Source: Erysipelotrichaceae bacterium MTC7
Lineage (GTDB): Bacteria > Bacillota_I > Bacilli_A > Erysipelotrichales > Erysipelotrichaceae
Direction: 5' to 3'
Length of the DNA stretch: 28,427 bases
NCBI GenBank assembly: GCA_001695645.1
Contig: LVZN01000021.1
Coordinates: 1 to 28,427, forward strand
Positions within the stretch are counted from its first letter, which is position 1, and every line of letters starts with the position of its first letter. Below, piece after piece: positions 7,942 to 28,280 of the stretch. The notes beneath the pieces are model-generated. The model saw only the letters and a program-made list of their open reading frames with translations. It did no database searches and was not told the origin of the DNA. Position numbers and translations under genes: made by a program.

Positions 7942-7945
7942 ATCT

Positions 7946-8614: not shown

Positions 8615-8618
8615 GTAT

Positions 8619-8650: not shown

Positions 8651-8656
8651 TTTATG

Positions 8657-8686
8657 AAAAAAAGAAGTTCACTTGAACTTCTTTAC
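8657..8686 (-). terminator. Hairpin downstream of the minus-strand phosphoesterase gene
   Basis: AAGAAGTTCA-ct-TGAACTTCTT flanked by A/T runs. The loop is very short, so the real stem is probably shorter. Confidence 0.4.
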
Positions 8687-8696
8687 ATCTATGTAG

Positions 8697-9566: not shown

Positions 9567-9611
9567 AGCCACTATTTTATCACACCCACACTCGAAGTGA
9601 AACTATTTGTA

Positions 9612-9639
9612 TTGAGATTGAAGTGAGATTTGGTATAAT
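9612..9639 (+). promoter_or_regulatory. Sigma-A type promoter with extended -10
   Basis: TTGAGA (9612-9617), 16-nt spacer, TGg-TATAAT (TG 9631-9632, TATAAT 9634-9639). Confidence 0.5.
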
Positions 9640-9646
9640 GAGTGAG

Positions 9647-10672: not shown

Positions 10673-10700
10673 ATCAAATCAACTTTTGGTTTTTTTTTTA
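10652..10700 (+). terminator. Intrinsic terminator overlapping the stop of the VanY-like gene
   Basis: AAACCAAAAG (10652-10661) pairs with CTTTTGGTTT (10683-10692) and is followed by a T-run. The loop is about 21 nt. Confidence 0.55.
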
Positions 10701-10818
10701 CGCATAAGTGTTAATTTAGGGAAACGGTAGTAAACAACACCTCCACTTTGGACGAATTATTTTTATAGTGAGTGTACGTAGTTTGTGGTATGATTAACGG
10801 GTATGGAGCGTGATATAT

Positions 10819-13410: not shown

Positions 13411-13420
13411 GAAGAACCAT

Positions 13421-14254
13421 ATGCCAGAATTACCAGAAGTAGAAACCGTTCTTAGAACGTTAGAACATCAAATCAAAGGACGTCAAATTGTACAAATTGA
13501 AGTACGATATGCAAAAATGATCGATGCAATGGATGCTAGTGAATTTACCAAACGATTAATGCATCAACATTTCGTAACGTTTTCACGTGTCGGAAAGTAT
13601 TTGGTTTTTGGCATGGATGATGTGAATTTGGTCGTTCATTTACGTATGGAAGGAAAATTCTACATTTATCAAAAGGATGAAGATCCATACAGCAAACATG
13701 CGCATATTGTATTTACGTTAGATGATGGGCGTAAACTGGTCTATCATGATGTTCGCAAATTTGGTCGTATGTATATTTATGATAAAGATCAACCTTTACC
13801 ACTGCAAAAAGCGTTTCAACACGTTGGGTATGATGCCTTTGATGTACGCGTTGATGCAAACTACTTGTATCAACAAGCAAAGAAACGCAAAACGACACTA
13901 AAACAATTCTTACTTGATCAAAGTGTTATGGCTGGAGTTGGTAACATTTATGCAGATGAAATCGCATATCGTTCTAAGTTCCATCCCGAAACAAAGGTTT
14001 ATCATCTAACCAAAAAAGATTTCCAAACAATCTTAGACAATACACGAATGATTTTAAAAGGTGCAATTAAAGCAGGGGGAACCACCATACGTTCCTATAC
14101 ATCTTCTTTAGGTGTCGATGGGAAATTCCAATTACAACTAAAGGTACATATGAAAAAAGGTGATGCTTGTCCAACTTGCGGAAAACCAATTGAAAAAATT
14201 GTTGTGGGTGGAAGGGGGACGTATCTATGTCGCACTTGTCAAAAACGCAAATGA
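13421..14254 (+). CDS. mutM: Formamidopyrimidine-DNA glycosylase
   Basis: MPELPEVETV N-terminus and C-terminal zinc finger CPTCG...CRTCQ. 277 aa. Confidence 0.95.
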   Translation: MPELPEVETVLRTLEHQIKGRQIVQIEVRYAKMIDAMDASEFTKRLMHQHFVTFSRVGKYLVFGMDDVNLVVHLRMEGKFYIYQKDEDPYSKHAHIVFTLDDGRKLVYHDVRKFGRMYIYDKDQPLPLQKAFQHVGYDAFDVRVDANYLYQQAKKRKTTLKQFLLDQSVMAGVGNIYADEIAYRSKFHPETKVYHLTKKDFQTILDNTRMILKGAIKAGGTTIRSYTSSLGVDGKFQLQLKVHMKKGDACPTCGKPIEKIVVGGRGTYLCRTCQKRK

Positions 14255-14844
14255 TGAAAATTGTCCTTACTGGAACCATTGGGTCAGGTAAAACCTATGT
14301 TGCCAAAAAGTTAGAAGCGCAAGGAGTTGCGGTGTTGTATTTGGATGCAGTTGCAGCTACGATACGTGATACGATTGCTAAACAAGCGGTTATCGATGCC
14401 TTTGGCACAAGTATTTTAAAAGATGATAACATTGATCGACAAGCACTTGGTGCACTTGTGTTTAAGGACTTGCAAGCTAAGCGAACTTTAGAAAACATCA
14501 TCCATCCGTTGGTTTTAGAAGAGATGTTAGCATTTTTCAAAACGCATGAACATGAGAAACTCTGTGTGGTGGAAGTTGCAAATGTACATGAGTTTGGCTG
14601 GCAAAAGTACTTTGATGAAGTATGGATGGTGGTATGTGATCACGATGTTGCCATCAACCGATTGATGAAACAAAGAGGATATTTGCAAGAATATGCAAAT
14701 ACAGTATTGAATGCACAAAAACAGTTTGTCTTAAAAGATAACGAAGTGCAAGCTTATATTTATAACAATCCAGAAGATGATGTGAACACACAATTGCAAC
14801 AACTTCTAGAAAGAGTAGGGGTTTATGGAATTACGCGAAGATAG
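14251..14844 (+). CDS. coaE: Dephospho-CoA kinase
   Basis: MMKIVLTGTIGSGKT P-loop. ATGA overlap with the mutM stop. The polA-mutM-coaE order is the classical Firmicute synteny. Confidence 0.9.
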   Translation: MMKIVLTGTIGSGKTYVAKKLEAQGVAVLYLDAVAATIRDTIAKQAVIDAFGTSILKDDNIDRQALGALVFKDLQAKRTLENIIHPLVLEEMLAFFKTHEHEKLCVVEVANVHEFGWQKYFDEVWMVVCDHDVAINRLMKQRGYLQEYANTVLNAQKQFVLKDNEVQAYIYNNPEDDVNTQLQQLLERVGVYGITRR

Positions 14845-15991
14845 TAAATTGCAAATAGAAATTCATGGTAAGATTGAACGTAGAGATTACCATGTTTTAA
14901 CGATGCTTTATTATCCTTTGATCCATGAAAGTGCCTATGTACTATATGAAATCATGGCTGCTTTAGCAGATGAAAAGATGAGTTTTGAAAATCATTTAAT
15001 TCTCGTGAAAGTTAGTGGACTAAGCATAGAGGTAATTGAACGTGAACGTAAAGTTCTGGAAAAATACCAATTGCTAAAAACCTACTATAGCGAAAAGTTA
15101 GATCGTTATATATACGAACTTTATCCGCCTAAAAAAGCCAATGATTTTTTGGAACACGAGGTGTTTGGTCGCATGTATTTAGATTTACTTGGAGAACAAG
15201 TATTCCGCTTCCAAAAACAAGCATTCTTACAAGAAAGTTTACGTAAACAAGAATACAAAGATGTTTCTGAGTGTATCAGTGATGTGATTCGTGAGGGTTG
15301 GAACGAACACTTTGAGAACACATTCTCAAAAATGCAGGAAGAAATTCAAGAAAGTCGCGATGGAAGTGAGATTATCTTTAATTATGACGCATTCTTGTTG
15401 AACTTTAAAAATGTTTGGCCACCAAAGAAACGTTCCGCGAAACTGTTAAAAGAAATTGGACGTATTGCGACCTTATATGGAATTCATCCACAAACCATGC
15501 GAGGTATTGTATCTCGTTCCTTGGATAAAGATGGTAATTTAGATGTAGATGGAATGCGTAAACGTGCAGCAAATAGTAAGGCAAAATACGAAACAGATGA
15601 GGTGAATATTTATAAATGGCCTCCGGTACGCTTCTTGCAAAACAAGCAAAAAGGGGTTGAACCAAGCCGTTATGATAAAGAAACCATTCGTATTTTATTA
15701 GAAGAATACAAATTGCATCCCGAAGTGGTCAATGTATTAATTGATTATGTGTTGCAAAAAGCAAATCAACGATTCCCACGAAACTTCGTAGAGAGTATTG
15801 CAGGATCATGGTTGCGTAGCAACATTGAAACCTACGAACAAGCAGTTGCCTATATGCACAATCCAACCAAAACCAACCAAGACGATAAAGTCTTAATATC
15901 ATATGAAGAAGAAGATACGATGAGTGAGGATGAACGTTCACGTATCATTGAAGAAATTCAAAAGAGAAGGGAGAGTCATGGAAAAGATTAA
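14825..15991 (+). CDS. dnaB: Replication initiation/membrane attachment protein (Firmicute DnaB, DnaD-domain family)
   Basis: 388 aa. N-terminal YHVLTMLYYPLIHESAYVLYEIM and C-terminal FVESIAGSWLRSNIETYEQA resemble DnaB/DnaD-domain blocks. Overlaps and precedes dnaI as in Bacillus. Confidence 0.7.
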   Translation: MELREDSKLQIEIHGKIERRDYHVLTMLYYPLIHESAYVLYEIMAALADEKMSFENHLILVKVSGLSIEVIERERKVLEKYQLLKTYYSEKLDRYIYELYPPKKANDFLEHEVFGRMYLDLLGEQVFRFQKQAFLQESLRKQEYKDVSECISDVIREGWNEHFENTFSKMQEEIQESRDGSEIIFNYDAFLLNFKNVWPPKKRSAKLLKEIGRIATLYGIHPQTMRGIVSRSLDKDGNLDVDGMRKRAANSKAKYETDEVNIYKWPPVRFLQNKQKGVEPSRYDKETIRILLEEYKLHPEVVNVLIDYVLQKANQRFPRNFVESIAGSWLRSNIETYEQAVAYMHNPTKTNQDDKVLISYEEEDTMSEDERSRIIEEIQKRRESHGKD

Positions 15992-16889
15992 TTTCAAATT
16001 GCAAGAAAGTGATAGCCAACGCAAAGAACGTGAGTTTTTATCACAACTATTGATTAAAGATGAACGAATCCAACGCTTTCTTGCAACTTACAAAGTCGAT
16101 TACGAATTTGTCTTACAAAATGCATATACACTAAAAGATTACGTGACTCGTCTGGACCAATGTCGTGATTGTGTTGGTTTAAGCCACTGCAAACAACCCA
16201 ATACAGGCTATTTGCTTGAAGTAAGTGCAAATGATGGTATATTAGATTATGAGTATGTAGCGTGCCGCTATGAAAGTAAAATTGAACGTCAAACGGCACA
16301 CCAAAACAAACTTATTTACAATGATATGTCGATTGAACAAATGGGATTTCGTTTTACAAACATTGATATTCAACACGAATCAACAGCGTATTTAGCCGTT
16401 GCAAACTACGTGGAGGCAAAAACGACGATCAGCGAACCACAGGGCTTTTATTTAAGTGGAGCACCAGGTGTTGGGAAAACCTATTTGATGTGTTGTTTTA
16501 TTAACGAAATGGCAGCGAAAGGAAAAACCTGTGCATTTGTACATGTACCAACTTTAATTGCCAATTTGAAAACGTTGATGAATACACCACATGGATATGG
16601 ACATGTGATTGAGAAATTAAAAAAAGTCGAAGTCTTAGCGATGGATGATATCGCGGGTGAAAGTGCATCGTCATGGTCACGTGATGATATTTTGCTTCCC
16701 ATCTTGAATGAGCGCATGGAAAGTCACCGTTTAACGGTATTTACCAGCAATTGTGCAAGAGAAAGACTCGAAGAATTCTATGTTTTAGGTAAGAAATCAG
16801 TCAATAATGAGCTTGGTGCTTTACGAATTAGTGAACGAATTAAGACATTGGCTGAAGAAAAAGTCGTGAAAGGTAAAAATCGCCGATAG
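15978..16889 (+). CDS. dnaI: Primosomal helicase loader DnaI
   Basis: ATG 15978 follows GGGAGAG. N-terminal Cys/His cluster CRDCVGLSHC...ACRY. AAA+ Walker A GAPGVGKT and Walker B LAMDDIAGE. Confidence 0.9.
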   Translation: MEKINFKLQESDSQRKEREFLSQLLIKDERIQRFLATYKVDYEFVLQNAYTLKDYVTRLDQCRDCVGLSHCKQPNTGYLLEVSANDGILDYEYVACRYESKIERQTAHQNKLIYNDMSIEQMGFRFTNIDIQHESTAYLAVANYVEAKTTISEPQGFYLSGAPGVGKTYLMCCFINEMAAKGKTCAFVHVPTLIANLKTLMNTPHGYGHVIEKLKKVEVLAMDDIAGESASSWSRDDILLPILNERMESHRLTVFTSNCARERLEEFYVLGKKSVNNELGALRISERIKTLAEEKVVKGKNRR

Positions 16890-16895
16890 ATACAC

Positions 16896-16924
16896 TAGAT
16901 ATTCTTATTGATAAGTGGTATATT
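16896..16924 (+). promoter_or_regulatory. Candidate pfkA-pyk promoter (extended -10)
   Basis: TAGATA (16896-16901), 17-nt spacer, -10 TATATT (16919-16924) with TG at 16916-16917. Confidence 0.35.
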
Positions 16925-16957
16925 AGTAGTGATTTTTAATCAGTGGGGAGTGCTATT

Positions 16958-17920
16958 ATGGTAAAAAGAATAGGCGTACTCACATCTGGTGGAGATGCAC
17001 CGGGTATGAATGCAGCAATTCGTGCAGTCACAAGAGTTGCAACGAATATTGGCATTGAAGTTTACGGAATTTATGATGGATATCGCGGAATGGTGGAAGG
17101 AAAAATCCAACCACTCACTCGTCGTGATGTTTCAGACATTCTTGACCGTGGAGGAACAATGTTAGGATCTGCAAGACTTCCGGAATTCAAAAGCCTTGAA
17201 GTGAGAGAAAAAGCTGTCGAGCAGCTTAAAAAATTCGGAATTGAAGCAGTAGTTGTCATCGGTGGGGATGGTAGTTACAGAGGAGCTTTAGCCTTGACCG
17301 AAATGGGAATTAACTGTATCGGTCTACCTGGGACAATCGACAATGATATCTCTAGTACGGACGAAACCATTGGGTTTAGTACGGCACTAACGACCATTGT
17401 TGATGCAGTCGATAAATTACGTGATACATCAAGTTCACACCATCGCTGTTCTGTTGTAGAAGTTATGGGAAACCGTTGTGGAGATCTTGCACTATTTGCA
17501 GGGATTTCAACAGGTGCGGAAATCGTCATAACAAGTGAAACAGGATTTGACGAAGGTGAAGTGTTAGACCGCTTACGTGAGTTTGATGTTGTGAAAAAGA
17601 AAAATCACGCATTGGTAATTATCTCTGAGAAAATTACAGATGTTGAGGTTTTTGCGCGTAAGGTCTCACAACATACCGGATTTTCTGGTAGGGCAACCAT
17701 CCTTGGTCACGTACAACGTGGAGGATCTCCTGTACCTGCTGATCGTATTTTAGCATCTCGCATGGGTGAGAAAGCTGTCGATCTACTGATGCAAGGTATT
17801 GGTGGTCAGTGCGTTGGGACGCAATCAGGTAATATTGTTGGTGTACCGATTGAAGAAGCACTTAACATGCCAGCAAAATCAAGAAAAGAATTACAAAATT
17901 TATTCGATCGTTTAGTATAA
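16958..17920 (+). CDS. pfkA: ATP-dependent 6-phosphofructokinase
   Basis: MVKRIGVLTSGGDAPGMNAAIR, IGGDGS, PGTIDND and LGHVQRGG. ATG 16958 follows GGGGAG. Confidence 0.96.
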   Translation: MVKRIGVLTSGGDAPGMNAAIRAVTRVATNIGIEVYGIYDGYRGMVEGKIQPLTRRDVSDILDRGGTMLGSARLPEFKSLEVREKAVEQLKKFGIEAVVVIGGDGSYRGALALTEMGINCIGLPGTIDNDISSTDETIGFSTALTTIVDAVDKLRDTSSSHHRCSVVEVMGNRCGDLALFAGISTGAEIVITSETGFDEGEVLDRLREFDVVKKKNHALVIISEKITDVEVFARKVSQHTGFSGRATILGHVQRGGSPVPADRILASRMGEKAVDLLMQGIGGQCVGTQSGNIVGVPIEEALNMPAKSRKELQNLFDRLV

Positions 17921-17937
17921 GGTGAGGTAAGAAAAAA

Positions 17938-19350
17938 ATGAAAAAGACGAAAATTATTTGTACGATTGGACCGGCTACAGAAAGTCCAGAAATGCTTAAA
18001 AAACTAGTAGAGACAGGGATGAACATATCACGTTTAAACTTCTCTCACGGTGACTATGAAGAACACGGAAACCGTATTAAAAACATCCGTAAAGTAAATG
18101 AAGAGTTAGATTCTAACATCGGGATTTTACTAGATACAAAAGGACCTGAAATTCGTTTAGGTGATTTCAAAAATGGTCAAGAAAGCTACAAAGCTGGGGA
18201 TACATTAACACTTGTTCGTGAACCAATTTTAGGAACACACGACCGTGTACACGTACAATGTCCAGAAGTGTTCGATGACGTACAAGTTGGTGGAACATTC
18301 TTAATTGACGATGGTAAAGTGCGTTTAACAATCCTTGAAAAAGGTGATGGAGAACTTCTATGCCGCGTTGAAAACCCAGGAGTACTTAAAAGTAAAAAAG
18401 GATGTAACGTTCCTAATGTTAAATTAAGTATGCCATTCGTGTCTGAAAAAGATGCTAACGACATTCGTTTTGGATGTAAAAATAAAGTGGATTACATTGC
18501 AGCTTCATTTACACGTCGTAAAGAAGATATTATGGACATCCGTAAGATCTTAAAAGAAGAAGGTCAAGAAGATATTCAAATTATTGCGAAAATCGAAAAC
18601 CAAGAAGGTTACGATAACTTAGATGAAATCTTACAAATCGCTGATGGAATCATGGTTGCTCGTGGAGACCTTGGTGTCGATGTAAGCTTTGAAAAAGTAC
18701 CTATTTACCAAAAAGAAATGATTGCACGAGCTAACGCATATGGGAAACCAGTTGTTACTGCAACACACATGTTAGAATCAATGCAACAAAATCCACGTCC
18801 AACACGTGCTGAAGCTAGTGATGTTGCCAACGCTGTGTTAGATGGAACAGATGCAATTATGCTTTCAGGGGAAAGTGCTGTTGGGATGTATCCAATTGAA
18901 GCGGTACAAACCATGGTTACAATTTCTGAAGGAATGGAAGCAATCTTACCTTACCGTGAAAAACTTCGTACTTCAATTAGTACTTCAAAACGTACAAAAT
19001 CAGATGCAATTGGTATTGCAGTAGCTGATACTGTGTTGGCAATGGATATTGCTGCTGTTGTATGTTTTACATCAAGTGGAACGAGTGCAAGACGTATTTC
19101 TAAATTCCGTCCTGACTGTCCAATCTTAGCTGCTACATTTGACGAAAGAACACGTCATGCATTAACCATCAACTGGGGTGTAAATGCAGTTGTTGTTGAT
19201 AAAATTAACAGCTTAGATAACGAATCAGAATTAGCAAGTACGGTTGCTAAAGAATTCGGATGCAAAAAAGGTGATACAATCATCGTTGTTGCTGGATATC
19301 CTCATGGATCTGGAGCAACAAACTCAATGCGCATTATCGAAGTTGAATAA
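17938..19350 (+). CDS. pyk: Pyruvate kinase (no PEP-utilizer C-terminal extension)
   Basis: KIICTIGP, RLNFSHG, IAKIENQEG, MVARGDLGV and MLSGESA. 470 aa. Confidence 0.96.
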   Translation: MKKTKIICTIGPATESPEMLKKLVETGMNISRLNFSHGDYEEHGNRIKNIRKVNEELDSNIGILLDTKGPEIRLGDFKNGQESYKAGDTLTLVREPILGTHDRVHVQCPEVFDDVQVGGTFLIDDGKVRLTILEKGDGELLCRVENPGVLKSKKGCNVPNVKLSMPFVSEKDANDIRFGCKNKVDYIAASFTRRKEDIMDIRKILKEEGQEDIQIIAKIENQEGYDNLDEILQIADGIMVARGDLGVDVSFEKVPIYQKEMIARANAYGKPVVTATHMLESMQQNPRPTRAEASDVANAVLDGTDAIMLSGESAVGMYPIEAVQTMVTISEGMEAILPYREKLRTSISTSKRTKSDAIGIAVADTVLAMDIAAVVCFTSSGTSARRISKFRPDCPILAATFDERTRHALTINWGVNAVVVDKINSLDNESELASTVAKEFGCKKGDTIIVVAGYPHGSGATNSMRIIEVE

Positions 19351-19364
19351 TAAACAAAACGTTT

Positions 19365-19411: not shown

Positions 19412-19428
19412 TACCATTTTGATACCAT
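19412..19428. repeat. attL core (direct repeat TACCATTTTGATACCAT)
   Basis: Identical 17-mer at 28103-28119. Itself contains a tandem ATACCAT...ATACCAT. Confidence 0.8.
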
Positions 19429-19448
19429 TTAAATCCGATTTAACTTGG

Positions 19449-19967
19449 TTATTCCTTTTCTAAGCGCCAAGTTTTTTTTGTCTTTTGATTTTCATAATCA
19501 TCAGAAGTGAATGGATAATTAAGTTTCCATTCATTGAACTCTCGAAGAGTTATATCGCCATTTGCTAATTCCTCTTTTCGTTTTTTCATTTCGAATAAAA
19601 GATTTTGCCAAGGCCAGTGCTTGAGTACGATACCACAATGTTCAAATGGATCATCAGTGTTGCCATCATCATATTCAAACATCTCCAATTCATTAGTTTC
19701 ATCTAATGTAAATAGGGTAAACATGATGCCATTTACATCTTTAAACAAATCGTTATTTATTTTTGGTTCTTGTAATGCTAAAGGATTAACATCAAGGTAA
19801 GATGCAATTTTGTTAATAACATCTTCTTTCGGGGTTCGATTATTAGTTTCATATTGGGCAATACGAACATCAGCAGATTCCTCTTTAAATCCAATTGCTA
19901 TACCTAAATCTTTTTGAGTAACATTTCTATGTATTCTCGCATTTCTTATTCTTGTTCCTACAGACAT
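19449..19967 (-). CDS. XRE-family HTH repressor of the element (ImmR/CI-like position)
   Basis: MSVGTRIRNARIHRNVTQKDLGIAIGF... HTH domain. ATG 19967 follows AAAGGAG. Divergent from xis-int. About 105-aa C-terminal domain of unknown type. The track start at 20018 is an extension. Confidence 0.8.
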   Translation of the reverse strand: MSVGTRIRNARIHRNVTQKDLGIAIGFKEESADVRIAQYETNNRTPKEDVINKIASYLDVNPLALQEPKINNDLFKDVNGIMFTLFTLDETNELEMFEYDDGNTDDPFEHCGIVLKHWPWQNLLFEMKKRKEELANGDITLREFNEWKLNYPFTSDDYENQKTKKTWRLEKE

Positions 19968-19996
19968 GATTGTACTCCTTTCAATGTTGTACCTAA

Positions 19997-20115
19997 ATTG
20001 TAGCAACAACTTAAGCAAGTGTAAAGATAAAGCTTAACAAAAATGTTAATGTTTATATTGACATTAACAAATATGTTTAGTATAGTAGGGTTGCGAGGTT
20101 TAACAAAATTGTTTA
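19997..20115. promoter_or_regulatory. Divergent promoter/operator region of the IME
   Basis: Plus strand: TTGACA (20058-20063), 17-nt spacer, TATAGT (20081-20086). Minus strand: TTTACA (complement of 20020-20025), 17-nt spacer, TACAAT (complement of 19997-20002). Three 16-bp palindromic sites TTAACA-N4-TGTT(A/T)A at 20034-20049, 20064-20079 and 20100-20115. Confidence 0.65.
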
Positions 20116-20136
20116 TTAAGAAAGGAGGTAAATTAT

Positions 20137-20349
20137 TTGAACAATGATGTGTTTATTGATGCTTCATACATTGCAGATATAACTGGTAGATCTAAATCAT
20201 TTGCTTACAAAGTAATGCAATCCTTAAATGATGAATTGAAACAAAAGGGATATATCACTCTGCGAGGCAAGGTAAGCAAAAAATACTTTGAAGAGCGCTT
20301 TTACGGACTAGTAGAAGGAGGAAATAAGAATGCCAGTTTACAAAGATGA
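20137..20349 (+). CDS. Small HTH DNA-binding protein, probable excisionase/recombination directionality factor
   Basis: 70 aa. TTG start 8 nt after AAAGGAGG. Overlaps int by 20 nt. ...ADITGRSKSFAYKVMQSLNDELKQKGYITLRGKVSKKYFEERFYG resembles small HTH proteins found next to Tn916-type integrases. Confidence 0.55.
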   Translation: MNNDVFIDASYIADITGRSKSFAYKVMQSLNDELKQKGYITLRGKVSKKYFEERFYGLVEGGNKNASLQR

Positions 20350-21457
20350 AACCATGAATAGTTGGTACGTATCAAAAAGATATACCAGCTGGGATGGTAA
20401 AAGCAAACGCAAAGTAAAAAGAGGTTTCAAAACAAAGAAAGCAGCACAAGAATATGAAAGATCATTTATTGCGAAAGAGTCACAAGAACTAGATATGACG
20501 TTTGGTGACTTTGTTGAAGTATATATGAAAGATCTGAATCCAAGACTTAAGGAGAACACCATTCATACAAAGGAAAATATTATTTACAATCAGATTGTTC
20601 CATACTTTGAAAACAAGAAAATAAACAATATAAAGCCTAATCATATTGTTGAATGGCAAAATGAAATGTTAGCATTTCGTAGTAAGTCTGGAGAACCATA
20701 TTCACCCTGTTATCTCAAAACACTTCATAATCAACTAAGCGCAATATTTAATCATGCTGTAAGATATTATGAGCTGAAAACAAACCCAGCAAAGCTTGCA
20801 GGCAGTATGGGGAAAGAAAAAGGGAAGGAAATTAAGTTCTGGACAAAAGAGGAATATCTTAAATTTAGTGAAGCACTAAATGATCGAGATTTGGTGTTTC
20901 ATGCATTTGAAATTTTATATTGGTGTGGTCTACGAATTGGAGAATTGTTGGCACTTACACCAAGTGATTTTGACTTTGAAAAAAGCACCATAAAAATTGA
21001 CAAGTCGTATCAAAGGTTAAAATGTAAAGATATAATCACAACTCCCAAAACAGAGAAAAGTAATAGAACTGTAAAGATGCCAAGTTTTCTCAAAAAAAAA
21101 ATGAAAGACTTATTATCACGTCTATATAAATTGGAGGGGAATTCACGCATTTTTGCAATCACTAAAAGTTGTCTTCATGGTCAAATGAGTAGAGGTTGTA
21201 AAAGAAGTGGAGTAAAGAAAATTAGAATACATGGTCTGCGACATTCACATGTTAGTTTACTAATTGAGATGGGGTTTGATGCTGTATCAATTGCAGACCG
21301 AGTGGGGCATGAGAGTATCGATATTACATATCGCTATGCACATATGTTTCCAACAAAACAAGATAATATTGCTGAAAGTTTGAATATTGAAAGAGAAACA
21401 ATCAGTAGTGTTACTACAAATACAAACAACAAACAAAAATTAGAAGTAAGAAGTTAA
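20330..21457 (+). CDS. int: Tyrosine recombinase (Tn916-family integrase with N-terminal arm-binding domain)
   Basis: N-terminus MPVYKDETMNSWYVSKRYTSWDGKSKRKVKRGFKTKKAAQEYE (AP2-like arm-binding fold). Catalytic blocks WCGLRIGELLAL, HGLRHSH and GHESIDITYRYAH. RBS GGAGGA. Confidence 0.9.
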   Translation: MPVYKDETMNSWYVSKRYTSWDGKSKRKVKRGFKTKKAAQEYERSFIAKESQELDMTFGDFVEVYMKDLNPRLKENTIHTKENIIYNQIVPYFENKKINNIKPNHIVEWQNEMLAFRSKSGEPYSPCYLKTLHNQLSAIFNHAVRYYELKTNPAKLAGSMGKEKGKEIKFWTKEEYLKFSEALNDRDLVFHAFEILYWCGLRIGELLALTPSDFDFEKSTIKIDKSYQRLKCKDIITTPKTEKSNRTVKMPSFLKKKMKDLLSRLYKLEGNSRIFAITKSCLHGQMSRGCKRSGVKKIRIHGLRHSHVSLLIEMGFDAVSIADRVGHESIDITYRYAHMFPTKQDNIAESLNIERETISSVTTNTNNKQKLEVRS

Positions 21458-21579
21458 TGATTAAACAATTTGTAAGCCATTTTAGTTGTTTGTCTGTTTG
21501 TTACAGTAGGCTAGATGTTAGTATAGATATTTTCTCCAGCTGGTGTTTTTTAGGAATTATTGGAGAAATGATTAAGATT

Positions 21580-21672
21580 GTGTCAGAGGATGTTGAAGTC
21601 TTCTGACACTTGATAATATGACAGCAAGCATGGTGTTTTGATACCAAAACACACTTGCTAGGGCTAAGCCCT
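21580..21672 (+). other. Candidate oriT (cluster of inverted repeats upstream of mobC)
   Basis: IR1: GTGTCAGAGGA (21580-21590) / TCTTCTGACAC (21599-21609). IR2: GCAAG...GTGTTTTG-ATAC-CAAAACAC...CTTGC (21624-21658). IR3: AGGGCT-A-AGCCCT (21660-21672). A possible extended -10, TGaTAATAT, lies at 21611-21619. Confidence 0.5.
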
Positions 21673-21701
21673 AAGACCCTTAAAGAGAAAGGATGATATT
21701 A

Positions 21702-22016
21702 ATGAACAGGAATATATCAATTCATGTTCGATTAAATGAGAAAGAATTTGATAAATTAAATGAACATGTAAATACCCTTGGTTGGAGCAGAGGGAAGTAC
21801 TTCAGGTCACTACTTGATGGTGCGGTTCTCAAAGTTCCACCACCACTTGAATACCATAAACTACTAAAAGAGTTTAACTATTTAGGTAACAATATTAACC
21901 AACTTGTAAAGTCTTCATATTGTAATGTTATGGACGTCTCAGAGGCACAAAAACAACTCAACAGATTTCATGAATTAATTACTTTGTTAGATAATAAAGT
22001 TAGAGGGTTTGCTTAA
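21702..22016 (+). CDS. mobC: MobC-family relaxosome accessory protein
   Basis: RHH-like N-terminus ISIHVRLNEKEFDKLNEH and the family motif LGNNINQLVK. TAATG overlap with the relaxase. ATG 21702 is better spaced from AGGA than the track start 21693. Confidence 0.8.
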   Translation: MNRNISIHVRLNEKEFDKLNEHVNTLGWSRGKYFRSLLDGAVLKVPPPLEYHKLLKEFNYLGNNINQLVKSSYCNVMDVSEAQKQLNRFHELITLLDNKVRGFA

Positions 22017-23314
22017 TGGCTACGACATCCCTTTGGGAAATCAAAGGGAAGATTACGGATGTAATTGCATACACTATTGATGAAAAGAAAACATCATTAA
22101 ATGATGCAGTTGATTACACTGTAGATTCATCGAAGACAATTGATAGGGAACTAGTAAGTTGTTTGAACTGTATGGATCACGATCCTGTGCAATCTATGAT
22201 AAATACCAAACGACAATTTCAGGATGATAAACCTATCGTATGTTTTCATGGTTACCAAAGTTTTCTTCCTGGTGAAGTTGACCATAAAACCGCACATGAG
22301 ATAGGGGTTAAGTATGCTCAAGAAATGTGGGGTGATAAGTATCAAGTTGTCATTTCAACTCATACTGATAAGGATCATGCCCATTCTCATTTTGTAGTTA
22401 ACTCTACATCATTTGTAGATGGCAAAAGGTACCAAAATAATCGACGAGACAAATATGAGATGCGAATTGTATCTGATAAGATTTGCAAAGAGTACGGGTT
22501 ATCGATTATAGAAAAACCAAAACGCTATGGAAAAACTAGAGCATATCAACATAATCTAATGAATGTGCGAGATAGGGTTCGTGCAGATTTAGATAGATTA
22601 ATTGCGATACACCAATCTACAGACAGTTTATTTCGAGAATTACAAAGGGAAGGTTATACTATTGATAACTCACGAAGGTACATGAAGTTAATTCCTCCGG
22701 GAAACACTAAAGGTGTGCGCTTAAAATCGCTTGGTGATAATTACACAATGGATGCTATCCAAGAACGAGTAATGGAAAATCATTTCAAGAAAATTGAAAG
22801 GCCAAGTCCATACGAGTATTACGAAAAGAAGAAGTTTGAAATTAGACCCTATTATGAAAAATATAAAAAAGGGGAATTAAATGGGTTTCAGAGACTATAC
22901 CTTCATTATCAATATGTATTAGGTATTATCCCAAAAGAGAATAAACTCAAATGGCGAGATTATTCTAAAGAACTTAAAAATGCAATCAAGGAAATGGATG
23001 CAATTTCTAGCCAAACCATCTTTATGTGTAGTTACAATATTTCTACAAATGAAGATTTGGACAGTGTTGAAAAAGCTCTAATTAAACACACTGATGAACT
23101 AATTAAGGAAAGGCGAGTTTTATATAACGCACGACGAACTATTACAAACGATGATGATCTCAAACAAAACAAAGAAAAAGTTAAAGATATTAACAAGACA
23201 TTGAAACAAGCGAAAAAGCAGATTGGTTATTGTGAGGGTATACGGACACGAGCAGCGACGATTGAAGCAATGAAGCTAGAAAGAGCAAGACGACGTGAAG
23301 AGTATATACTCTAA
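22016..23314 (+). CDS. Relaxase/mobilization nuclease (MobA/VirD2 PF03432-type)
   Basis: N-terminal ...VIAYTIDEKKT (candidate catalytic Tyr) and histidine triad HTDKDHAHSHFVVNS. K/E-rich, probably coiled-coil C-terminus. Confidence 0.85.
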   Translation: MATTSLWEIKGKITDVIAYTIDEKKTSLNDAVDYTVDSSKTIDRELVSCLNCMDHDPVQSMINTKRQFQDDKPIVCFHGYQSFLPGEVDHKTAHEIGVKYAQEMWGDKYQVVISTHTDKDHAHSHFVVNSTSFVDGKRYQNNRRDKYEMRIVSDKICKEYGLSIIEKPKRYGKTRAYQHNLMNVRDRVRADLDRLIAIHQSTDSLFRELQREGYTIDNSRRYMKLIPPGNTKGVRLKSLGDNYTMDAIQERVMENHFKKIERPSPYEYYEKKKFEIRPYYEKYKKGELNGFQRLYLHYQYVLGIIPKENKLKWRDYSKELKNAIKEMDAISSQTIFMCSYNISTNEDLDSVEKALIKHTDELIKERRVLYNARRTITNDDDLKQNKEKVKDINKTLKQAKKQIGYCEGIRTRAATIEAMKLERARRREEYIL

Positions 23315-23367
23315 AATGAAATAATGCATCTTATAATTTTAATAAAGTGTTTGATGAAAGTAGTAAA

Positions 23368-23416
23368 AAAAGGATGATAATTTCATGGTTGTGATAATCC
23401 ATTTATTACATCCTCT
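23368..23416. terminator. Possible bidirectional terminator between convergent relaxase and ABC genes
   Basis: AAAGGATG (23369-23376) pairs with CATCCTCT (23409-23416), with A/T runs on both sides. The 32-nt loop makes it weak. Confidence 0.3.
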
Positions 23417-23417
23417 T

Positions 23418-25238
23418 TTAATTATTTCTTAAAACTTTACTAGTTTTTACCTTTTTTATTAAATTTGTGAATACTACTACTGCAACAAGAACTTCCATAA
23501 GTATAAGAAGTAAAGGTAAGAATATGGCGTATATCGAAATATGAAATCCTAAAGTAAGAACAGCGGCAATTAATAAGTAGATTATTGTTGCCTTTGTTAC
23601 AACATATAAGTGACTTTTTAAATAAACAGATGTTAAGTAGTTATTGGATAATCCGTTAATCTTCAATATTGCTATTTCTCTACGTTTTTTCTTCAAAGTA
23701 TTCCAGTTTAATATGGAAAGTATAACAACACCAGCAATGATGAATCCAACCGTAAATAAGATTTTTAACCTATCATGAGATCTTTGCATCACTTTTATTT
23801 CATCCATTTTAATGGCATCTGAATTTACATAGAATCCTTTATCTTCAAATGATTCTTTCGCTTTTTCCAAATTTTCTAGTTTATTTCCTTGAAATATATA
23901 TCCAATTGATTCTGTGCTGGTAAGTGCTTCAGAAAAAAACGAATCAATTACATCGTAATGCATATACATAAAATACGCATTATTATTATCAAAATGGTTT
24001 GTGACTCCTTGCTTTAATACACCATTAATCTTATAGTCATAATCCTGTACGACTTCATTCCCATTGCTATTTACTATTGTTGTAGTTGCATCAAATTGAT
24101 ATTGAACATTGGCATTTTTCTCTCTTAATAGTTTGTAAACGCGATTTGATAAATAGACTCCATCGAGTTCATTATCATAATATTCGGTTTCAATTAGCGA
24201 GCTTATGTCATCTTTACTAAAATATGGAATTATTGAAATGGGATTTCCCATTTCAATATAAATCTGATTCAAAGGCTTGAGTTGAAAATTTGATTTTGGC
24301 TCACTAAAGAAATTTCTGTTCGTATATAGTGGAGCCTCATCTTTCTCATTCATTATCAATATTTCTTTCACGAAAGAGTTAACTAGTAATTCTTCTTGTA
24401 CTCCATTTTGATAATCGATAAATCCAATTACTAGAAAATTGATAATCATTAAAATCAAAGCGATTAAAGCGTAGATTGTGTTGTTTCTCTTTGACCTTTT
24501 CAACTCGTATTTTATATAATGCTTTTCAAAATTCTTATCTATAGGCTCATAGTATAAAGATGTTTTGTTTATTCTACTTTTAACACTAGAGTCATTAGTC
24601 TCTGAGATTATTTTTTTATTTTTTATTTTTAAACATATGTCAGCTTGTTTAACGACCGCTTTAGAGTGAGAGGAAATGAGTAAGTATATGTTTCTTTTTT
24701 TAATCTGTTCCTTCAAAATGTTTATAATAATTTTTTCGTTTTCTTTGTCTAGAGAAGCAGTTGGTTCATCTAAAACAAGTACATCAGGTTCTTTAATAAG
24801 TGAACATGCTAAGGCTAGACGCTGCTTTTGTCCAAGTGATAAAGTGGATACCGTTTGAGAAAACGGTATCTCTAATCTAAACTCCTTTAAATACGAAGTT
24901 AACTCTTTTTCTGAGATTGATTTATCCGTTAGTGCTGCAAACAAGTTTATGTTTTCTTCTACAGTGAGATGGTCAATTAAATCATTTTCTTGCAAAACGA
25001 ACCCAATATAATTTCTCTTGAAATTAGAAAGTTCTTCATTGTTCATTTGATTGATATTATTTCCTTCATATGTTATATCGCAATCTATGTCAATCAAGGC
25101 AACTCTGTACAAAAGAGAAGTTTTCCCAATTCCGCTTTCCCCAGCGAGAACATATAGCTTTCCTCTTTCTAAAAACAATGAGGTATTCACCAATAATTGT
25201 CTATCGTAAGTAATATTAATTTGTCGTAATTCGTACAT
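23418..25238 (-). CDS. Fused ABC ATPase - FtsX/MacB-type 4-TM permease, paralog 2 (606 aa)
   Basis: NBD: Walker A GESGIGKTS, Q-loop VLQEN, signature LSLGQKQR, Walker B LVLDEPTASLD, H-loop SSHS. Then TM1 (IYALIALILMIINFLVIGFI), an ectodomain of about 230 aa, and three C-terminal TMs with the FtsX-type loop KKRREIAILKINGLS. The start overlaps the upstream gene by 23 nt behind AAGAGGA. Confidence 0.85.
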   Translation of the reverse strand: MYELRQINITYDRQLLVNTSLFLERGKLYVLAGESGIGKTSLLYRVALIDIDCDITYEGNNINQMNNEELSNFKRNYIGFVLQENDLIDHLTVEENINLFAALTDKSISEKELTSYLKEFRLEIPFSQTVSTLSLGQKQRLALACSLIKEPDVLVLDEPTASLDKENEKIIINILKEQIKKRNIYLLISSHSKAVVKQADICLKIKNKKIISETNDSSVKSRINKTSLYYEPIDKNFEKHYIKYELKRSKRNNTIYALIALILMIINFLVIGFIDYQNGVQEELLVNSFVKEILIMNEKDEAPLYTNRNFFSEPKSNFQLKPLNQIYIEMGNPISIIPYFSKDDISSLIETEYYDNELDGVYLSNRVYKLLREKNANVQYQFDATTTIVNSNGNEVVQDYDYKINGVLKQGVTNHFDNNNAYFMYMHYDVIDSFFSEALTSTESIGYIFQGNKLENLEKAKESFEDKGFYVNSDAIKMDEIKVMQRSHDRLKILFTVGFIIAGVVILSILNWNTLKKKRREIAILKINGLSNNYLTSVYLKSHLYVVTKATIIYLLIAAVLTLGFHISIYAIFLPLLLILMEVLVAVVVFTNLIKKVKTSKVLRNN

Positions 25239-27405
25239 CTTTTTTCCTCTTTATAAAAATGAATGGCACAATAAACTCAAATATTAATGAAAGCATTAGT
25301 AGTGCACCTATTATTACAATATTTATCTTAATGAAACTAATATTCATAAAGTAAATTATTCGTGTAAGTAGTAAAAATGATAAAAGAGATATAACGAAGA
25401 CTACCAATGTATTAAACGTATACTGTAGTAGTAAATATTTGATTTGTTCATTCTTCTCTAGCCCGTTTTTTGCTAAGAAATCTTTTGCATTGTCATCAAT
25501 GTCTCTATTTAAATATTTTAAATATAAATTTAGTAACGCTGCAAAAATAAAAATTGCTATTCCTATATATAGAAAAGTTGTATTATTCAAATTTTTATAG
25601 TCCTCAATTGTACCAGAAGAAAGAAATTTAGAGTCGATATTAAAACCATTTTTTTCGATTTCATTTTGAATTTTCTCAATTTTATTTATGTCATTAACAA
25701 AAACATTGAAAGCGTTTGGCACCCATTTCTTTTGCACGATGTGTTGGTCATCAAATCCGGATGCATCGTAATTCACTTCTTCCGGTAAACTCTCATAAAA
25801 AGTTTCTCCAAGCTTAGAAATATACCATGCTTCTCTTTCGTCAGGATAATTAGAGGCAAGCATTCCTATTGTGTTTGAGATTAATTGTTGAGGTACATAT
25901 ATAGCATATAAAGTATTTTCACCATTTAAAGATTCTCCGCTTTTTATCACACCTAAAATTGGCAGTTCAACATGTACATAATGACAAGTTGTGTAGTTTA
26001 CTGGCACAGCATTTGAATCGTCATCTCCAGTACTTAAACTCGTTACTCCTTTGGAGTCGTATATTGGAACTGGCATATCAAATCCAACCTTTAAATTATT
26101 ATTGAATTCTTTTCCTCTAAAAAGGTATGAATAAACATTAGAAGTGAGATATACTCCTGTTTCTTCATATTTAAATTGTTCCTCTTTTGATAGTGAACTT
26201 GCTAGTTTAGTTTCATAATTACCCTTTGGGTAAGTGTGAAGATAATGGTCAACACCATTAAATGAAGGTTTTGTTTCAGTAGGTTCATCATTTAATATGT
26301 TAACAGAATTGATTACTTCACCATTTTCCATTCCAGATATCTCATAATTATAGATATTGAAGTTTTCGGTATGTATTCTTTCTTGGCCCTTGGCTAAATA
26401 AAAATCCCGTGTATTATCTAGAATGTTGTCATATCTCCATTCTAGTGAACTTACATCCTTAATGTTTGAAAGCTTCGTGATATCCTTTTCTTCGATTGGG
26501 TATTCGGATCCCGCATACTCATAAACCGAACTCGCAAAAGGAGCTTTATAAACTATTGTATCTGTATTGCTAAGTTGATCAAGTTGCTGTTGGATATTAG
26601 CCTTAAGTGCATTATTAAAAAAAATAGATGCAACTAAAATTGATATTGATACGCTTACAATAATATATGAAAATTTCTTTATTACTTTCTCATTTTTTGT
26701 TGATTTCACAATATATTTTAAGAATGATTTTGTTGATTTTGATTGTGCATTTTCGCTTAGAGATTTTTCTTTATTCTTTGTTATTTCTTTTTTTATTAGC
26801 TTCTTGTTATTTATCTCATAAATAACTCCAGCTCTGCTAATTAGTTGTTGATCGTGTGTTGCACAGATTACAATTTTCCCAATTCCTGCGTATTCTTCTA
26901 AAAAATTCATAACGGTTTGTTTGTTATCCTCATCAAGAGAAGCTGTTGGTTCATCCAATAATAATACATTTGGGTTCTTGATTGTTGCTAATAAAATTGA
27001 CAACCTTGTTTTTTCTCCACCTGATAATTGACTAGGGAATTTAACTAACAAATCATTCAGTTTCAATTTTTCAAGAAAGTTCTTTGGAAAATCTTGAATC
27101 TCATATAGATCCATTACAAAATGTATATTATCTTTCACCGTAAGGTTATCAAAAAAAGTTGGAGTCTGTTCAACAATTCCAACGTTTTGAAAAATGAAAT
27201 CTTGATAATTTTCGAGTTCTACCAGAAAGTTTTTATAGTGAACTTCAGATTTGTATAATCCTTTGATGATATTGAGCAAAGTAGTCTTACCAGTTCCACT
27301 TTCTCCTATGATTAATGTCAATTCACCTGGTTTTGCTTCAAACTTGGTTGACCTAAAAATATGGTTATCACCAAATGAAACATTAAGATTATTTAAGTTA
27401 AGCAT
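25216..27405 (-). CDS. Fused ABC ATPase - FtsX/MacB-type 4-TM permease, paralog 1 (729 aa)
   Basis: NBD: Walker A GESGTGKTT, Q-loop VEQTP, signature LSGGEKTR, Walker B LLLDEPTASLD, H-loop ATHD. Then TM1 (FSYIIVSVSISILVASIFF), an ectodomain of about 350 aa, and three C-terminal TMs. RBS GGAGGT. Confidence 0.85.
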   Translation of the reverse strand: MLNLNNLNVSFGDNHIFRSTKFEAKPGELTLIIGESGTGKTTLLNIIKGLYKSEVHYKNFLVELENYQDFIFQNVGIVEQTPTFFDNLTVKDNIHFVMDLYEIQDFPKNFLEKLKLNDLLVKFPSQLSGGEKTRLSILLATIKNPNVLLLDEPTASLDEDNKQTVMNFLEEYAGIGKIVICATHDQQLISRAGVIYEINNKKLIKKEITKNKEKSLSENAQSKSTKSFLKYIVKSTKNEKVIKKFSYIIVSVSISILVASIFFNNALKANIQQQLDQLSNTDTIVYKAPFASSVYEYAGSEYPIEEKDITKLSNIKDVSSLEWRYDNILDNTRDFYLAKGQERIHTENFNIYNYEISGMENGEVINSVNILNDEPTETKPSFNGVDHYLHTYPKGNYETKLASSLSKEEQFKYEETGVYLTSNVYSYLFRGKEFNNNLKVGFDMPVPIYDSKGVTSLSTGDDDSNAVPVNYTTCHYVHVELPILGVIKSGESLNGENTLYAIYVPQQLISNTIGMLASNYPDEREAWYISKLGETFYESLPEEVNYDASGFDDQHIVQKKWVPNAFNVFVNDINKIEKIQNEIEKNGFNIDSKFLSSGTIEDYKNLNNTTFLYIGIAIFIFAALLNLYLKYLNRDIDDNAKDFLAKNGLEKNEQIKYLLLQYTFNTLVVFVISLLSFLLLTRIIYFMNISFIKINIVIIGALLMLSLIFEFIVPFIFIKRKKDVRITTN

Positions 27406-27470
27406 TTTTTACCTCCATAGTAATAGAAAGTATTAACTATTGAGTTTTGTTAAACTGTTAGTGTAATACT

Positions 27471-27875
27471 CTATCTCCATGTTTTGGTATTGTTATCAAA
27501 AGTGTAAGTAAAGTTTGCAGTAGGACTACCAGCAATAGCAGGGTTTACATAAACGTATGCGGTTACTTTACGCTTAGCTACATATACACCCCCAGAAGCA
27601 CTTGTTGAAGTCGTTGTTGCACTCGAAACGTGGACTTGTTGTGCACCGGCACAAGATGCGCTTTGGTTGAATGTCCATCTCGATACACCTGAATCATCAA
27701 ATTTAGCTGTTGAGCTAATGTGATATGTAAATGATGACAATTTACCGCTACTACTTTTTGTTTGCGAGTAAACTTTTAAAGGCTCTATTGTTTTAACAGT
27801 TGTAAAACCAGATGCCACTAAAAAAGTTGAGATTGCCAATATACTTACAAATAATCTACTTAATCTATTTTTCAT
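27471..27875 (-). CDS. Small secreted Ser/Thr-rich protein (134-aa precursor, Sec signal peptide), unknown family
   Basis: ATG 27875 lies 5 nt after GGAGGGGA. MKNRLSRLFVSILAISTFLVASG is an n-h-c signal peptide with no lipobox Cys. The mature part is rich in S/T/A/V with alternating beta-like stretches and ends ...FTYTFDNNTKTWR. The track start at 27962 is a TTG extension. Confidence 0.75.
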   Translation of the reverse strand: MKNRLSRLFVSILAISTFLVASGFTTVKTIEPLKVYSQTKSSSGKLSSFTYHISSTAKFDDSGVSRWTFNQSASCAGAQQVHVSSATTTSTSASGGVYVAKRKVTAYVYVNPAIAGSPTANFTYTFDNNTKTWR

Positions 27876-28102
27876 TTTAATCCCCTCCGTATAATTTAAA
27901 AAATAGTTAATACTTCCTAATTTCATTTTATCACAAAGATTTTTGATATTTAAGTGATTCAAATTGATTTATTTTGACTGACTGATTTTGGTTTATGATG
28001 GGCTTTAAATTCTTGTTTTTTTCATTAGTCAAAGTACTATAAGATAATAAGTAAACGATCTTGTTATATGATATTAAATTTGCTATTATTGCATTCTAAT
28101 AG

Positions 28103-28119
28103 TACCATTTTGATACCAT
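28103..28119. repeat. attR core (direct repeat TACCATTTTGATACCAT)
   Basis: Identical to 19412-19428. Confidence 0.8.
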
Positions 28120-28124
28120 CTATC

Positions 28125-28159: not shown

Positions 28160-28280
28160 AGAAAAGGAATAAAACCCCTTAAATACACTACGATTTACTA
28201 CAAGTCAGTTTTGAATTAAGGAAGTTGAATAATAAACTTTATACCTAAAGGAAGTGTCGATGACATTTCCTTTTTTTATT
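28160..28280 (+). ncRNA. Candidate ~120-nt small RNA (orphan promoter-to-terminator unit)
   Basis: Bounded by the promoter above and the terminator at 28247-28280. It contains only a 6-codon ORF. I recognise no family. Confidence 0.25.
28247..28280 (+). terminator. Intrinsic terminator
   Basis: AAAGGAAGTGT-cgatg-ACATTTCCTTT (11 bp including one G-U) followed by TTTTATT. Confidence 0.6.

Follow-up and report, generated by a model that had tools for sequence, protein, structure and literature searches.

A small predicted secreted protein and two MacB-type ABC half-transporters encoded by an operon on an integrative mobilizable element of Erysipelotrichaceae bacterium MTC7

The operon and the element that carries it

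The DNA analysed here, referred to below as the window, is an entire contig of 28,427 nucleotides (nt) from Erysipelotrichaceae bacterium MTC7, an inhabitant of the gut. Its minus strand carries, between positions 23418 and 27875, an operon of three genes encoding a small protein with a signal peptide and two large proteins in which an ATP-binding cassette (ABC) ATPase is fused to a membrane domain. The large proteins are named the 729 and 606 proteins after their lengths in amino acids (aa). At NCBI, all three products are annotated as hypothetical proteins (A4S06_10955, A4S06_10950 and A4S06_10945). The operon is the sole cargo of an 8.9-kb integrative mobilizable element (IME) located at the 3' end of the pyruvate kinase gene pyk. 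In the order of transcription, the features of the operon are the following:

27925-27933, minus strand: candidate extended -10 promoter element TGATAAAAT, found by eye about 50 nt upstream of the ATG of the small gene
27882-27888, minus strand: Shine-Dalgarno sequence GGAGGGG of the small gene, read from the sequence, 6 nt ahead of the ATG at 27875
27471-27875, minus strand: gene of the small protein, 134 aa (open reading frame; A4S06_10955)
25216-27405, minus strand: gene of the "long" ABC half-transporter, 729 aa (open reading frame)
23418-25238, minus strand: gene of the "short" ABC half-transporter, 606 aa (open reading frame)
23364-23419, minus strand: intrinsic-terminator-like hairpin with a run of seven U, directly 3' of the stop codon of the 606 gene, at the end of the operon

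An earlier reading of this DNA, made from its letters alone (the sequence-only reading), had proposed three co-oriented genes with strong Shine-Dalgarno sequences, transcribed together. The open reading frames (ORFs) were found at these coordinates, and the genes of the 729 and 606 proteins are also preceded by Shine-Dalgarno sequences (GGAGG and GAGGA, respectively) located 6 nt ahead of an ATG. The three genes form one operon, since the 65-nt gap between the small gene and the 729 gene contains no terminator-like site in a terminator scan, the 729 and 606 genes overlap by 23 nt (25216-25238) and the terminator-like hairpin follows the 606 gene. This last structure has a folding energy of -15.5 kcal/mol with a z-score of -3.8, and none of 200 shuffled sequences was as stable. 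It is absent from the simple terminator scan, being probably outside its limits on loop length (3-8) or on G-C pairs.

The small gene can also be read from a TTG codon, which gives a longer ORF extending to 27962. The ATG at 27875 is the likely start, because translation from it begins directly with a canonical signal peptide and because NCBI annotates the same start. The candidate element TGATAAAAT lies inside the longer ORF, which also argues for the ATG. The -35 element of this candidate promoter, TTAAAT, is weak (three of six positions match, with a 17-nt spacer) and the promoter is not listed by a consensus scan. An AU-rich hairpin (27400-27480, minus strand; -14.9 kcal/mol, z-score -2.2) begins in the final codons of the small gene and ends shortly before the Shine-Dalgarno sequence of the 729 gene. 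This hairpin, which is devoid of a U tract, could be a stabiliser or a processing site of the mRNA that raises the ratio of the small-gene message to the ABC message.

The element and its boundaries comprise the following features:

19339-19355, plus strand: left copy of the 17-nt direct repeat GAAGTTGAATAATAAAC, putative attL, which takes in the stop codon of pyk
19449-23314, mixed strands: IME backbone, from Pfam matches and the ORF list, composed of the next four genes
19449-20018, minus strand: gene of an XRE-type helix-turn-helix protein
20330-21457, plus strand: tyrosine integrase gene (Phage_integrase match in Pfam)
21693-22016, plus strand: gene of a NikA-like protein (NikA-like match in Pfam)
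22016-23314, plus strand: gene of a MobA/VirD2-type relaxase (Relaxase match in Pfam)
28221-28237, plus strand: right copy of GAAGTTGAATAATAAAC, putative attR, a perfect match to the left copy

Positions 1-19,350 of the window carry ordinary chromosomal genes, among them those encoding DnaB_2 (replication initiation/membrane attachment), DnaI, phosphofructokinase and pyruvate kinase (Pfam matches and ORF list); the pyk ORF ends at 19350. Beyond the putative attR are a chromosomal terminator (28247-28273) and then a rubrerythrin gene. In a 36.5-kb assembly of the same locus (L007), the genes of rubrerythrin, TrkH and TrkA come directly past the small gene. The element is assigned as an IME because it combines an integrase, a relaxase with its accessory protein, repeats at a chromosomal target and chromosomal genes on both sides, and because no conjugation-pore genes were found in it from the Pfam matches and ORF list of the window. 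The G+C content is 29-32% inside the element, compared with 35-42% in the flanks. These data bear out the earlier proposal of a mobilizable element with a lower G+C content. A megablast search of the operon against plasmids gave no match.

The encoded proteins and their known counterparts

Each large protein had been described in the sequence-only reading as a nucleotide-binding domain (NBD) followed by a first transmembrane helix (TM1), an ectodomain and three further transmembrane (TM) helices, which is the topology of MacB and FtsX. Hydropathy gives the same picture, with four TM helices and a large extracytoplasmic domain between TM1 and TM2 in both proteins. In the 729 protein, the NBD covers residues 1 to about 215, TM1 residues 245-263, the ectodomain residues 264-610 (347 aa) and the other helices residues 611-629, 666-684 and 696-714. 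In the 606 protein, TM1 (255-273) and the ectodomain (274-492, 219 aa) are followed by helices at 493-511, 546-564 and 572-590. The sequence-only reading had estimated the ectodomains at about 350 and 230 aa. The N-terminal domains match ABC_tran (PF00005) with 92.6 bits for the 729 protein and 84.5 bits for the 606 protein, and the Walker A motif, Q-loop, signature, Walker B motif and H-switch are intact in both.

The AlphaFold2 model of the 729 protein (predicted local distance difference test, pLDDT, of 81) displays long helices at residues 241-278, 597-632, 651-686 and 696-720. Its best matches with Foldseek are the MacB structures 5lil, 5gko and 5nik (E from 4e-31 to 7e-26, template-modelling score of 0.51-0.62), aligned over the whole length of the chains in about 750 columns with about 15% identity. 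The YbbAP-TesA structures are found among the matches to the ATPase domain of the model. The family profile of the 606 protein also has MacB as its best sequence matches in the PDB, in two matched stretches. The FtsX domain (PF02687; cut-off 25.5 bits) scores 24.3 bits in the whole 606 protein, 25.5 bits in its transmembrane domain (TMD) alone and 35.3 bits in the homologue of this protein in the related locus L093. It has no match by sequence in the 729 protein, and a profile of the ectodomain and TMD found no sequence match in the PDB. By predicted fold (structure comparison of the model for the 729 protein, sequence profile and paralogy for the 606 protein), the ABC part belongs to the MacB/FtsX superfamily, or type VII ABC, and to no curated family. 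Neither protein reaches a curated cut-off of NCBIfam; the MacB equivalog NF007826 is matched by the ATPase domains only, with 98.3 and 85.2 bits for a cut-off of 966. The earlier opinion that the operon fits no known system goes too far for the ABC part, which has its superfamily by fold, although no curated family fits. The matches of the large proteins in PADLOC correspond to generic ATPase-domain similarity with partial coverage of the profiles, and a phage-defence system was rejected on this basis.

The ectodomains had been judged unrelated by eye, and this has to be corrected. With hhalign, the family profiles of the 729 and 606 proteins align over 551 columns (probability 100, E 1e-73), from the ATPase domain through the ectodomain to the C-terminal TM region, the alignment stopping ahead of the last TM helix. 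According to these profiles, the two proteins are full-length paralogues with homologous ectodomains, the long type bearing large ectodomain insertions relative to the short type. The ABC signature of the 606 protein (residues 134-138, window positions 24825-24839) is LSLGQ instead of LSGGQ. The form LSLG(Q/E) is present in nine of 15 short-type members and LSGG(E/Q) in all long-type members, and in a heterodimer the LSLGQ of the short partner would make the two ATP sites unequal.

The comparison with characterized systems indicates what is shared and what is particular here. MacB and the 729 and 606 proteins have in common the N-terminal ATPase fused to a four-helix membrane domain and the large extracytoplasmic domain between TM1 and TM2. 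MacB is a homodimer working with MacA and TolC, whereas two paralogues without an adaptor gene are found here in a Gram-positive host, and the ectodomain of MacB has roughly 200 aa against 347 aa in the 729 protein (PMC5985334). No gene for a MacA/YknX-type adaptor was found in the element and, in the related loci, no gene beside the pairs was annotated as one. LolCDE, FtsEX, BceAB, YknXYZ, AS-48EFGH and YbbAP share the mechanotransmission architecture with the 729 and 606 proteins but have the ATPase as a separate polypeptide, and BceB and YbbP differ further by their ten helices in one chain. None of the curated cut-offs of the models for these types is reached by the 729 or 606 protein. LolC/LolE provide a precedent for a heterodimeric membrane part. 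MacB-type ABCs have been linked to protection from own or foreign peptide toxins (PMC5985334), with YknXYZ (against SDP), BceAB and AS-48EFGH as examples (PMC5985334, PMC7038271). Secreted protein partners of type VII ABC complexes, as in FtsEX and YbbAP-TesA, are well documented (PMC7668044, PMC10694151, PMC6705773). An arrangement both ATPase-fused and heterodimeric was not found among those in the 2018 review of MacB (PMC5985334).

The small protein (134 aa) has an N-terminal signal peptide with its hydrophobic h-region at residues 9-27. The mature form would comprise about 110-112 aa, with a mass of 11-12 kDa, an isoelectric point (pI) of 9.8 and 31% of Ser+Thr. No match was detected in Pfam, NCBIfam, PADLOC, PHROG or the PDB. 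The AlphaFold2 model, built on an alignment of three sequences, is all-beta with seven mostly long strands (mean pLDDT of 79, about 85-90 in the mature part). Compared with the PDB by Foldseek, it gave nothing better than an E-value of 0.078 and a template-modelling score of 0.28; it had no significant match in BFVD, and no catalytic or toxin domain is recognisable in it. Among 1.84 billion representative proteins, phmmer detected two true relatives, P0243 (E 1e-5) and P0244 (E 2.5e-5). A fourth full-length member was recovered in L093 from the neighbourhoods of the closest ABC homologues (48 bits, E 1e-16 against a hidden Markov model, HMM, of three members). All four mature proteins have 11-12 kDa, a pI of 9.7-10.0, a net charge of +6 to +9 and 31-36% of Ser+Thr. 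Two giant repeat proteins returned by phmmer were discarded as spurious with the four-member HMM: P0242, which scored -8.5 bits over the whole sequence and had matched on repeats of the type DGTWTF, and P0245, which had no match at E<=10. No relatives were found in JGI metagenome contigs and IMG/VR, either with the alignment of the small protein or with that of the ectodomain and TMD. The small protein founds a very rare new family, and to judge from the model its fold is probably new too.

Distribution of the ABC pair and of the small gene

A word-indexed search among 5.8 billion proteins recovered about 14 full-length relatives for each of the 729 and 606 proteins, with 22-37% identity. The relatives whose source is named belong to Erysipelotrichaceae or Faecalibacillus. 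The word indexing of the search and the shortness of contigs limit the reach of this survey. A contig scan of a genome collection using the full-length 729 alignment was uninformative on the family, its patterns being ATPase motifs that recovered generic ABC ATPases only. A long-type gene precedes a short-type gene in all nine independent loci where both are seen (window/L007, L002/L003, L004, L005/L006, L091/L092, L093, L094/L095, L096 and L097), usually with an overlap. Two long genes precede the short one in L004 and L005, and reciprocal BLASTP assigned every partner unambiguously to one type. Such a strict order of long then short is the pattern expected of an obligate heteromer. It supports the heterodimer imagined in the sequence-only reading, in which the two chains would pair physically. 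In L004 (8278-10434), an ABC fusion of 655 aa and the next ORF of 57 aa look like one long-type gene split by a frameshift, and by eye the 57-aa product matches the C-terminus of P0012 almost exactly.

That the three ORFs could be an annotation artefact, or decaying genes without function, is an idea for which the scarcity of relatives of the small protein and the AT-rich composition of the region may be invoked. It is effectively refuted by the long intact ORFs with strong Shine-Dalgarno sequences, the conserved catalytic motifs and the confident structure models, and by divergent intact homologues (24-37% identity) that keep the gene order in independent assemblies.

The sequence-only reading had made its proposal depend on the co-occurrence of the small gene with such ABC genes, and the outcome is in its favour. 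Every homologue of the small gene that was found lies directly upstream of, and on the same strand as, a long-type ABC gene (six of six occurrences: window, L008, L009/L010, L093, L096 and a remnant in L097). This includes the genes of P0243 and P0244. A LytTR response regulator is encoded directly upstream of the small gene in L009, and the copy in L096 is a C-terminal fragment cut by the end of the contig. The remnant in L097 (100-252) has decayed: only its C-terminal third is recognisable (21 bits with the HMM), it has no signal peptide and it contains in-frame stops, of which single ones may be sequencing errors in this low-coverage Logan contig. It is located directly upstream of an ABC pair with open reading frames (697 aa and 562 aa, the second cut by the contig end). 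This locus looks like one where the small gene was lost and the ABC pair retained.

The pair also occurs without the small gene, in L001, L002, L004, L005, L091 and L094, and a six-frame HMM scan of the pair-only loci revealed no trace of the small family. In L002, the bare pair stands between lysine-biosynthesis genes and a peptidase gene, and in L091 small membrane proteins are encoded upstream of the pair. L001 and L094/L095, from two Erysipelotrichaceae assemblies, share a conserved chromosomal context (BipA-CutC) with no small secreted protein. Upstream of their ABC pair, at L001:5328-5666 and L094:5282-5620, is a divergent gene of a PadR-family regulator, followed by a gene of a small protein, which is a DUF6120 protein in L094/L095 and a 69-aa product without Pfam match in L001.

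Regulator and kinase modules of the LytTR type are present in L004 and L005/L006. In L005 (517-9997, and likewise in L006), an agr-like module encodes a LytTR response regulator, a histidine kinase, AgrB, a 48-aa peptide without Cys and a secreted cationic protein of 128 aa. The gene of this last protein occupies the slot directly ahead of three consecutive ABC-FtsX fusion genes (723, 719 and 617 aa). Despite an RW motif in common, the 128-aa protein was rejected as a homologue of the small family (BLASTP E 3.7, HMM 6 bits) and is a positional analogue only. Another ABC fusion gene ends just upstream of the module.

The pair-only loci invite the explanation that the two ABC proteins act as a stand-alone pump conferring resistance to, or detoxification of, foreign envelope-active peptides or further compounds, comparable to BceAB, YknYZ and HrtAB. 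The small protein would then be an accessory, capturing substrate or associated with the wall, or a co-transcribed cargo with an unrelated role. A divergent PadR-type regulator beside a transporter is the typical arrangement of drug and peptide resistance pumps, and the pair is accompanied in this way, together with a small protein, in L001 and L094/L095 and stands alone in L002. The 729 and 606 proteins carry every ATPase motif in intact form, and MacB-family proteins of Gram-positive bacteria have repeatedly been tied to peptide resistance (PMC5985334, PMC7038271). We nevertheless hold this explanation to be rather improbable. It leaves unexplained the exclusive linkage of the small family to the pair in the six loci, the fact that both relatives found among the 1.84 billion representatives adjoin a pair, and the presence in L005 of a different secreted cationic protein of the same size in the same slot.

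The strict adjacency of the small gene and the long-type gene in the six loci is also what may be expected if the small protein were a non-toxin extracellular partner or effector of a mechanotransmission ABC. In this view, it would bind to the asymmetric ectodomains, and the ATP-driven movement would activate, release or position it, with a role in envelope remodelling, adhesion or similar. FtsEX with EnvC, PcsB, CwlO or RipC and YbbAP with TesA are precedents (PMC7668044, PMC10694151, PMC6705773), and YbbAP-TesA is one of the fold matches of the ATPase domain. The long beta strands of the small-protein model, with neither a fold match nor a recognisable catalytic or toxin domain, are compatible with such a partner, and the lineage-specific insertions of the long-type ectodomain could form the docking surface. 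On the other hand, at least six loci have the pair in the absence of the small gene and one has it next to a decayed copy, which means that the pair does not strictly require the small protein as a subunit. Where partners of FtsEX-type systems are known, they are hydrolases or hydrolase activators bearing coiled-coil, LytM or CHAP domains, and no such domain is seen in the small protein. The carriage on a mobile element together with the quorum-sensing regulators of related loci also fits competition better. This explanation, the main rival of the bacteriocin-like reading presented below, appears unlikely, though it deserves to be taken seriously.

Relation to lactococcin 972 and possible function

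The gene order had been likened to that of lactococcin 972 loci, and the likeness was found again in the operon of pBL1 (NC_004955.1, identified by tblastn). The Lcn972 sequence is 100% identical to pBL1 and scores 55.5 bits against PF09683. In pBL1, the bacteriocin gene is followed by genes for a membrane protein of 648 aa (Orf2) and an ATPase of 207 aa (Orf3). Both operons begin with a beta-rich secreted protein bearing a Sec signal, continue with membrane and ABC components and are located on a mobile replicon. Peptide quorum-sensing control is found in loci related to that of MTC7 as it is in loci of the lcn972 type and in the scb locus (PMC11796350). The ATPases have 31% identity to Orf3 of pBL1. 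What sets the MTC7 operon apart is that ATPase and membrane domain form a single chain, and that this unit has been duplicated to give two divergent paralogues.

Our preferred reading, which we hold with some reserve and at a little less than even confidence, is that the operon encodes a Sec-secreted bacteriocin-like protein together with a heterodimeric type VII ABC that would release it and protect the producer. The bacteriocin-like character is suggested by the gene order, which is that of the verified lactococcin 972 operon of pBL1. It is suggested too by TIGR03608 ("putative bacteriocin export ABC transporter", from lactococcin 972 loci), the top NCBIfam model for both ATPase domains (143.8 bits for the 729 protein and 132.9 bits for the 606 protein). 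Further arguments are the LytTR/AgrB peptide quorum-sensing regulators of related loci, typical of bacteriocin loci, the cationic and secreted nature of an 11-12 kDa product in all four full-length members, the position of the operon as sole cargo of a low-G+C mobilizable element, and the known role of MacB-type ABCs in protection from peptide toxins. The interpretation as toxin and immunity comes from the one-sided dependence of the genes, since the small gene is never found without the pair and the pair is often found without the small gene, once beside a decayed copy. The pair-only loci and the decay in L097 match the common pattern of orphan immunity genes that outlast their toxin gene. 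In the pneumococcal scb locus, for example, a quarter of strains have kept scbBC without the bacteriocin (PMC11796350).

Several results weigh against this reading. The TIGR03608 scores are far under the cut-off of 254.85 bits, and the models of FtsE, LolD and DevA score nearly as high. As already noticed in the sequence-only reading, the small protein has no lactococcin 972 match: the four members of its family give none at E<=10 with PF09683 or TIGR01653, the hhalign probability against authentic Lcn972 is 0.6%, and no similarity of sequence or fold to any known bacteriocin was detected. The mature protein has about 110 residues, compared with 66 in lactococcin 972. The TMDs of the 729 and 606 proteins have no match at E<=10 with TIGR01654 or DUF1430 (PF07242), and in hhalign the match of the 606 family to Orf2 of pBL1 is confined to 73 columns at TM2, with a probability of 24%. 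The PadR-linked pairs in plain chromosomal contexts indicate that the pair can act independently of the small protein. Finally, even in the lactococcin 972 loci, the B and C genes have roles that await experimental verification (PMC11796350).

The MTC7 operon is not a member of the lactococcin 972 family, because neither the bacteriocin model nor the DUF1430/TIGR01654 model matches it and the cut-off of TIGR03608 is not reached. By these sequence comparisons it is an analogue of that system, with a shared ancestry visible at the superfamily level only. A likeness seen by eye between the C-termini of the small protein and Lcn972 (GVYVAKRK and GVWAKATV, and the ends) was rejected by hhalign. No Lcn972 entry appears among the 50 Foldseek matches shown for the three-sequence model of the small protein, the presence of Lcn972 in the searched copy of the PDB being unconfirmed. 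Orf2 of pBL1 (L098 3571-5517) matches DUF1430 with 78 bits and, weakly, resembles FtsX at residues 547-611 (17.3 bits, E 0.005), a hint that the ABC of lactococcin 972 may also be a distant system of the FtsX superfamily.

The gene structure, domains, fold, paralogy, synteny and mobile context are established by the analysis. The bacteriocin-like reading adds secretion, pairing of the large proteins, antimicrobial activity and immunity, which we infer, the last two from synteny and analogy. The 134-aa product would be exported by Sec and its signal peptide removed. The mature cationic all-beta protein of about 12 kDa would then act extracellularly, its presumed target being the envelope of Gram-positive competitors. 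The 729 and 606 proteins would pair as a heterodimer in which cytoplasmic ATP hydrolysis moves the ectodomains, as proposed for MacB, LolCDE, BceAB, YknXYZ and AS-48EFGH. This movement would strip the small protein off the outer face of the producer membrane, which would provide both its release and the immunity of the producer. Transfer of the 8.9-kb element would hand the recipient the weapon and the shield together, and the operon might in addition favour the stable maintenance of the element, an effect that lactococcin 972 has on pBL1.

A broader proposal may be made, for which our confidence is slightly lower. It is that these loci represent a new class of Sec-dependent bacteriocins (about 11 kDa, all-beta, new fold), each with a dedicated NBD-fused heterodimeric pair of the MacB type, which would spread among gut Erysipelotrichaceae on small mobilizable elements and would have arrived independently, with different parts, at the logic of lactococcin 972. 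The elements of novelty are a small-protein family without relatives outside these loci and without a fold match, a Firmicute subfamily of MacB-type proteins in which the NBD is fused and a long and a short form are paired, and the combination of both on a minimal mobilizable element. The ABC superfamily, as recognised by fold, was already known, and the overall logic resembles that of known systems. Since the family is rare, the scope is modest whichever reading holds. If the bacteriocin-like reading is true, a new protein family, probably with a new fold, is added to the few antimicrobial proteins of gut Firmicutes that are Sec-dependent and unmodified. The operon would also offer a clean genetic system for the role of the linked ABC and membrane genes, a question open even for lactococcin 972: it consists of three genes on an 8.9-kb element that is mobile by nature, and variants in which the small gene is missing or has been lost occur naturally. 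The unequal sizes of the ectodomains would make the extracellular face asymmetric, a useful property for testing models of mechanotransmission.

Two minor observations concern the element itself. An inner repeat, TACCATTTTGATACCAT, is present as two overlapping copies at 19412-19442 and as one copy at 28103-28122 (19 of 20 positions identical), all in direct orientation and 60-100 nt inside the 17-nt att repeats. These copies may be arm-type binding sites of the integrase. The integrase is intact in the window (375 aa) and is found in L007 (14948-15909, coverage of 1.9x) as two pieces of 118 and 202 aa, probably through an assembly error of this low-coverage contig.

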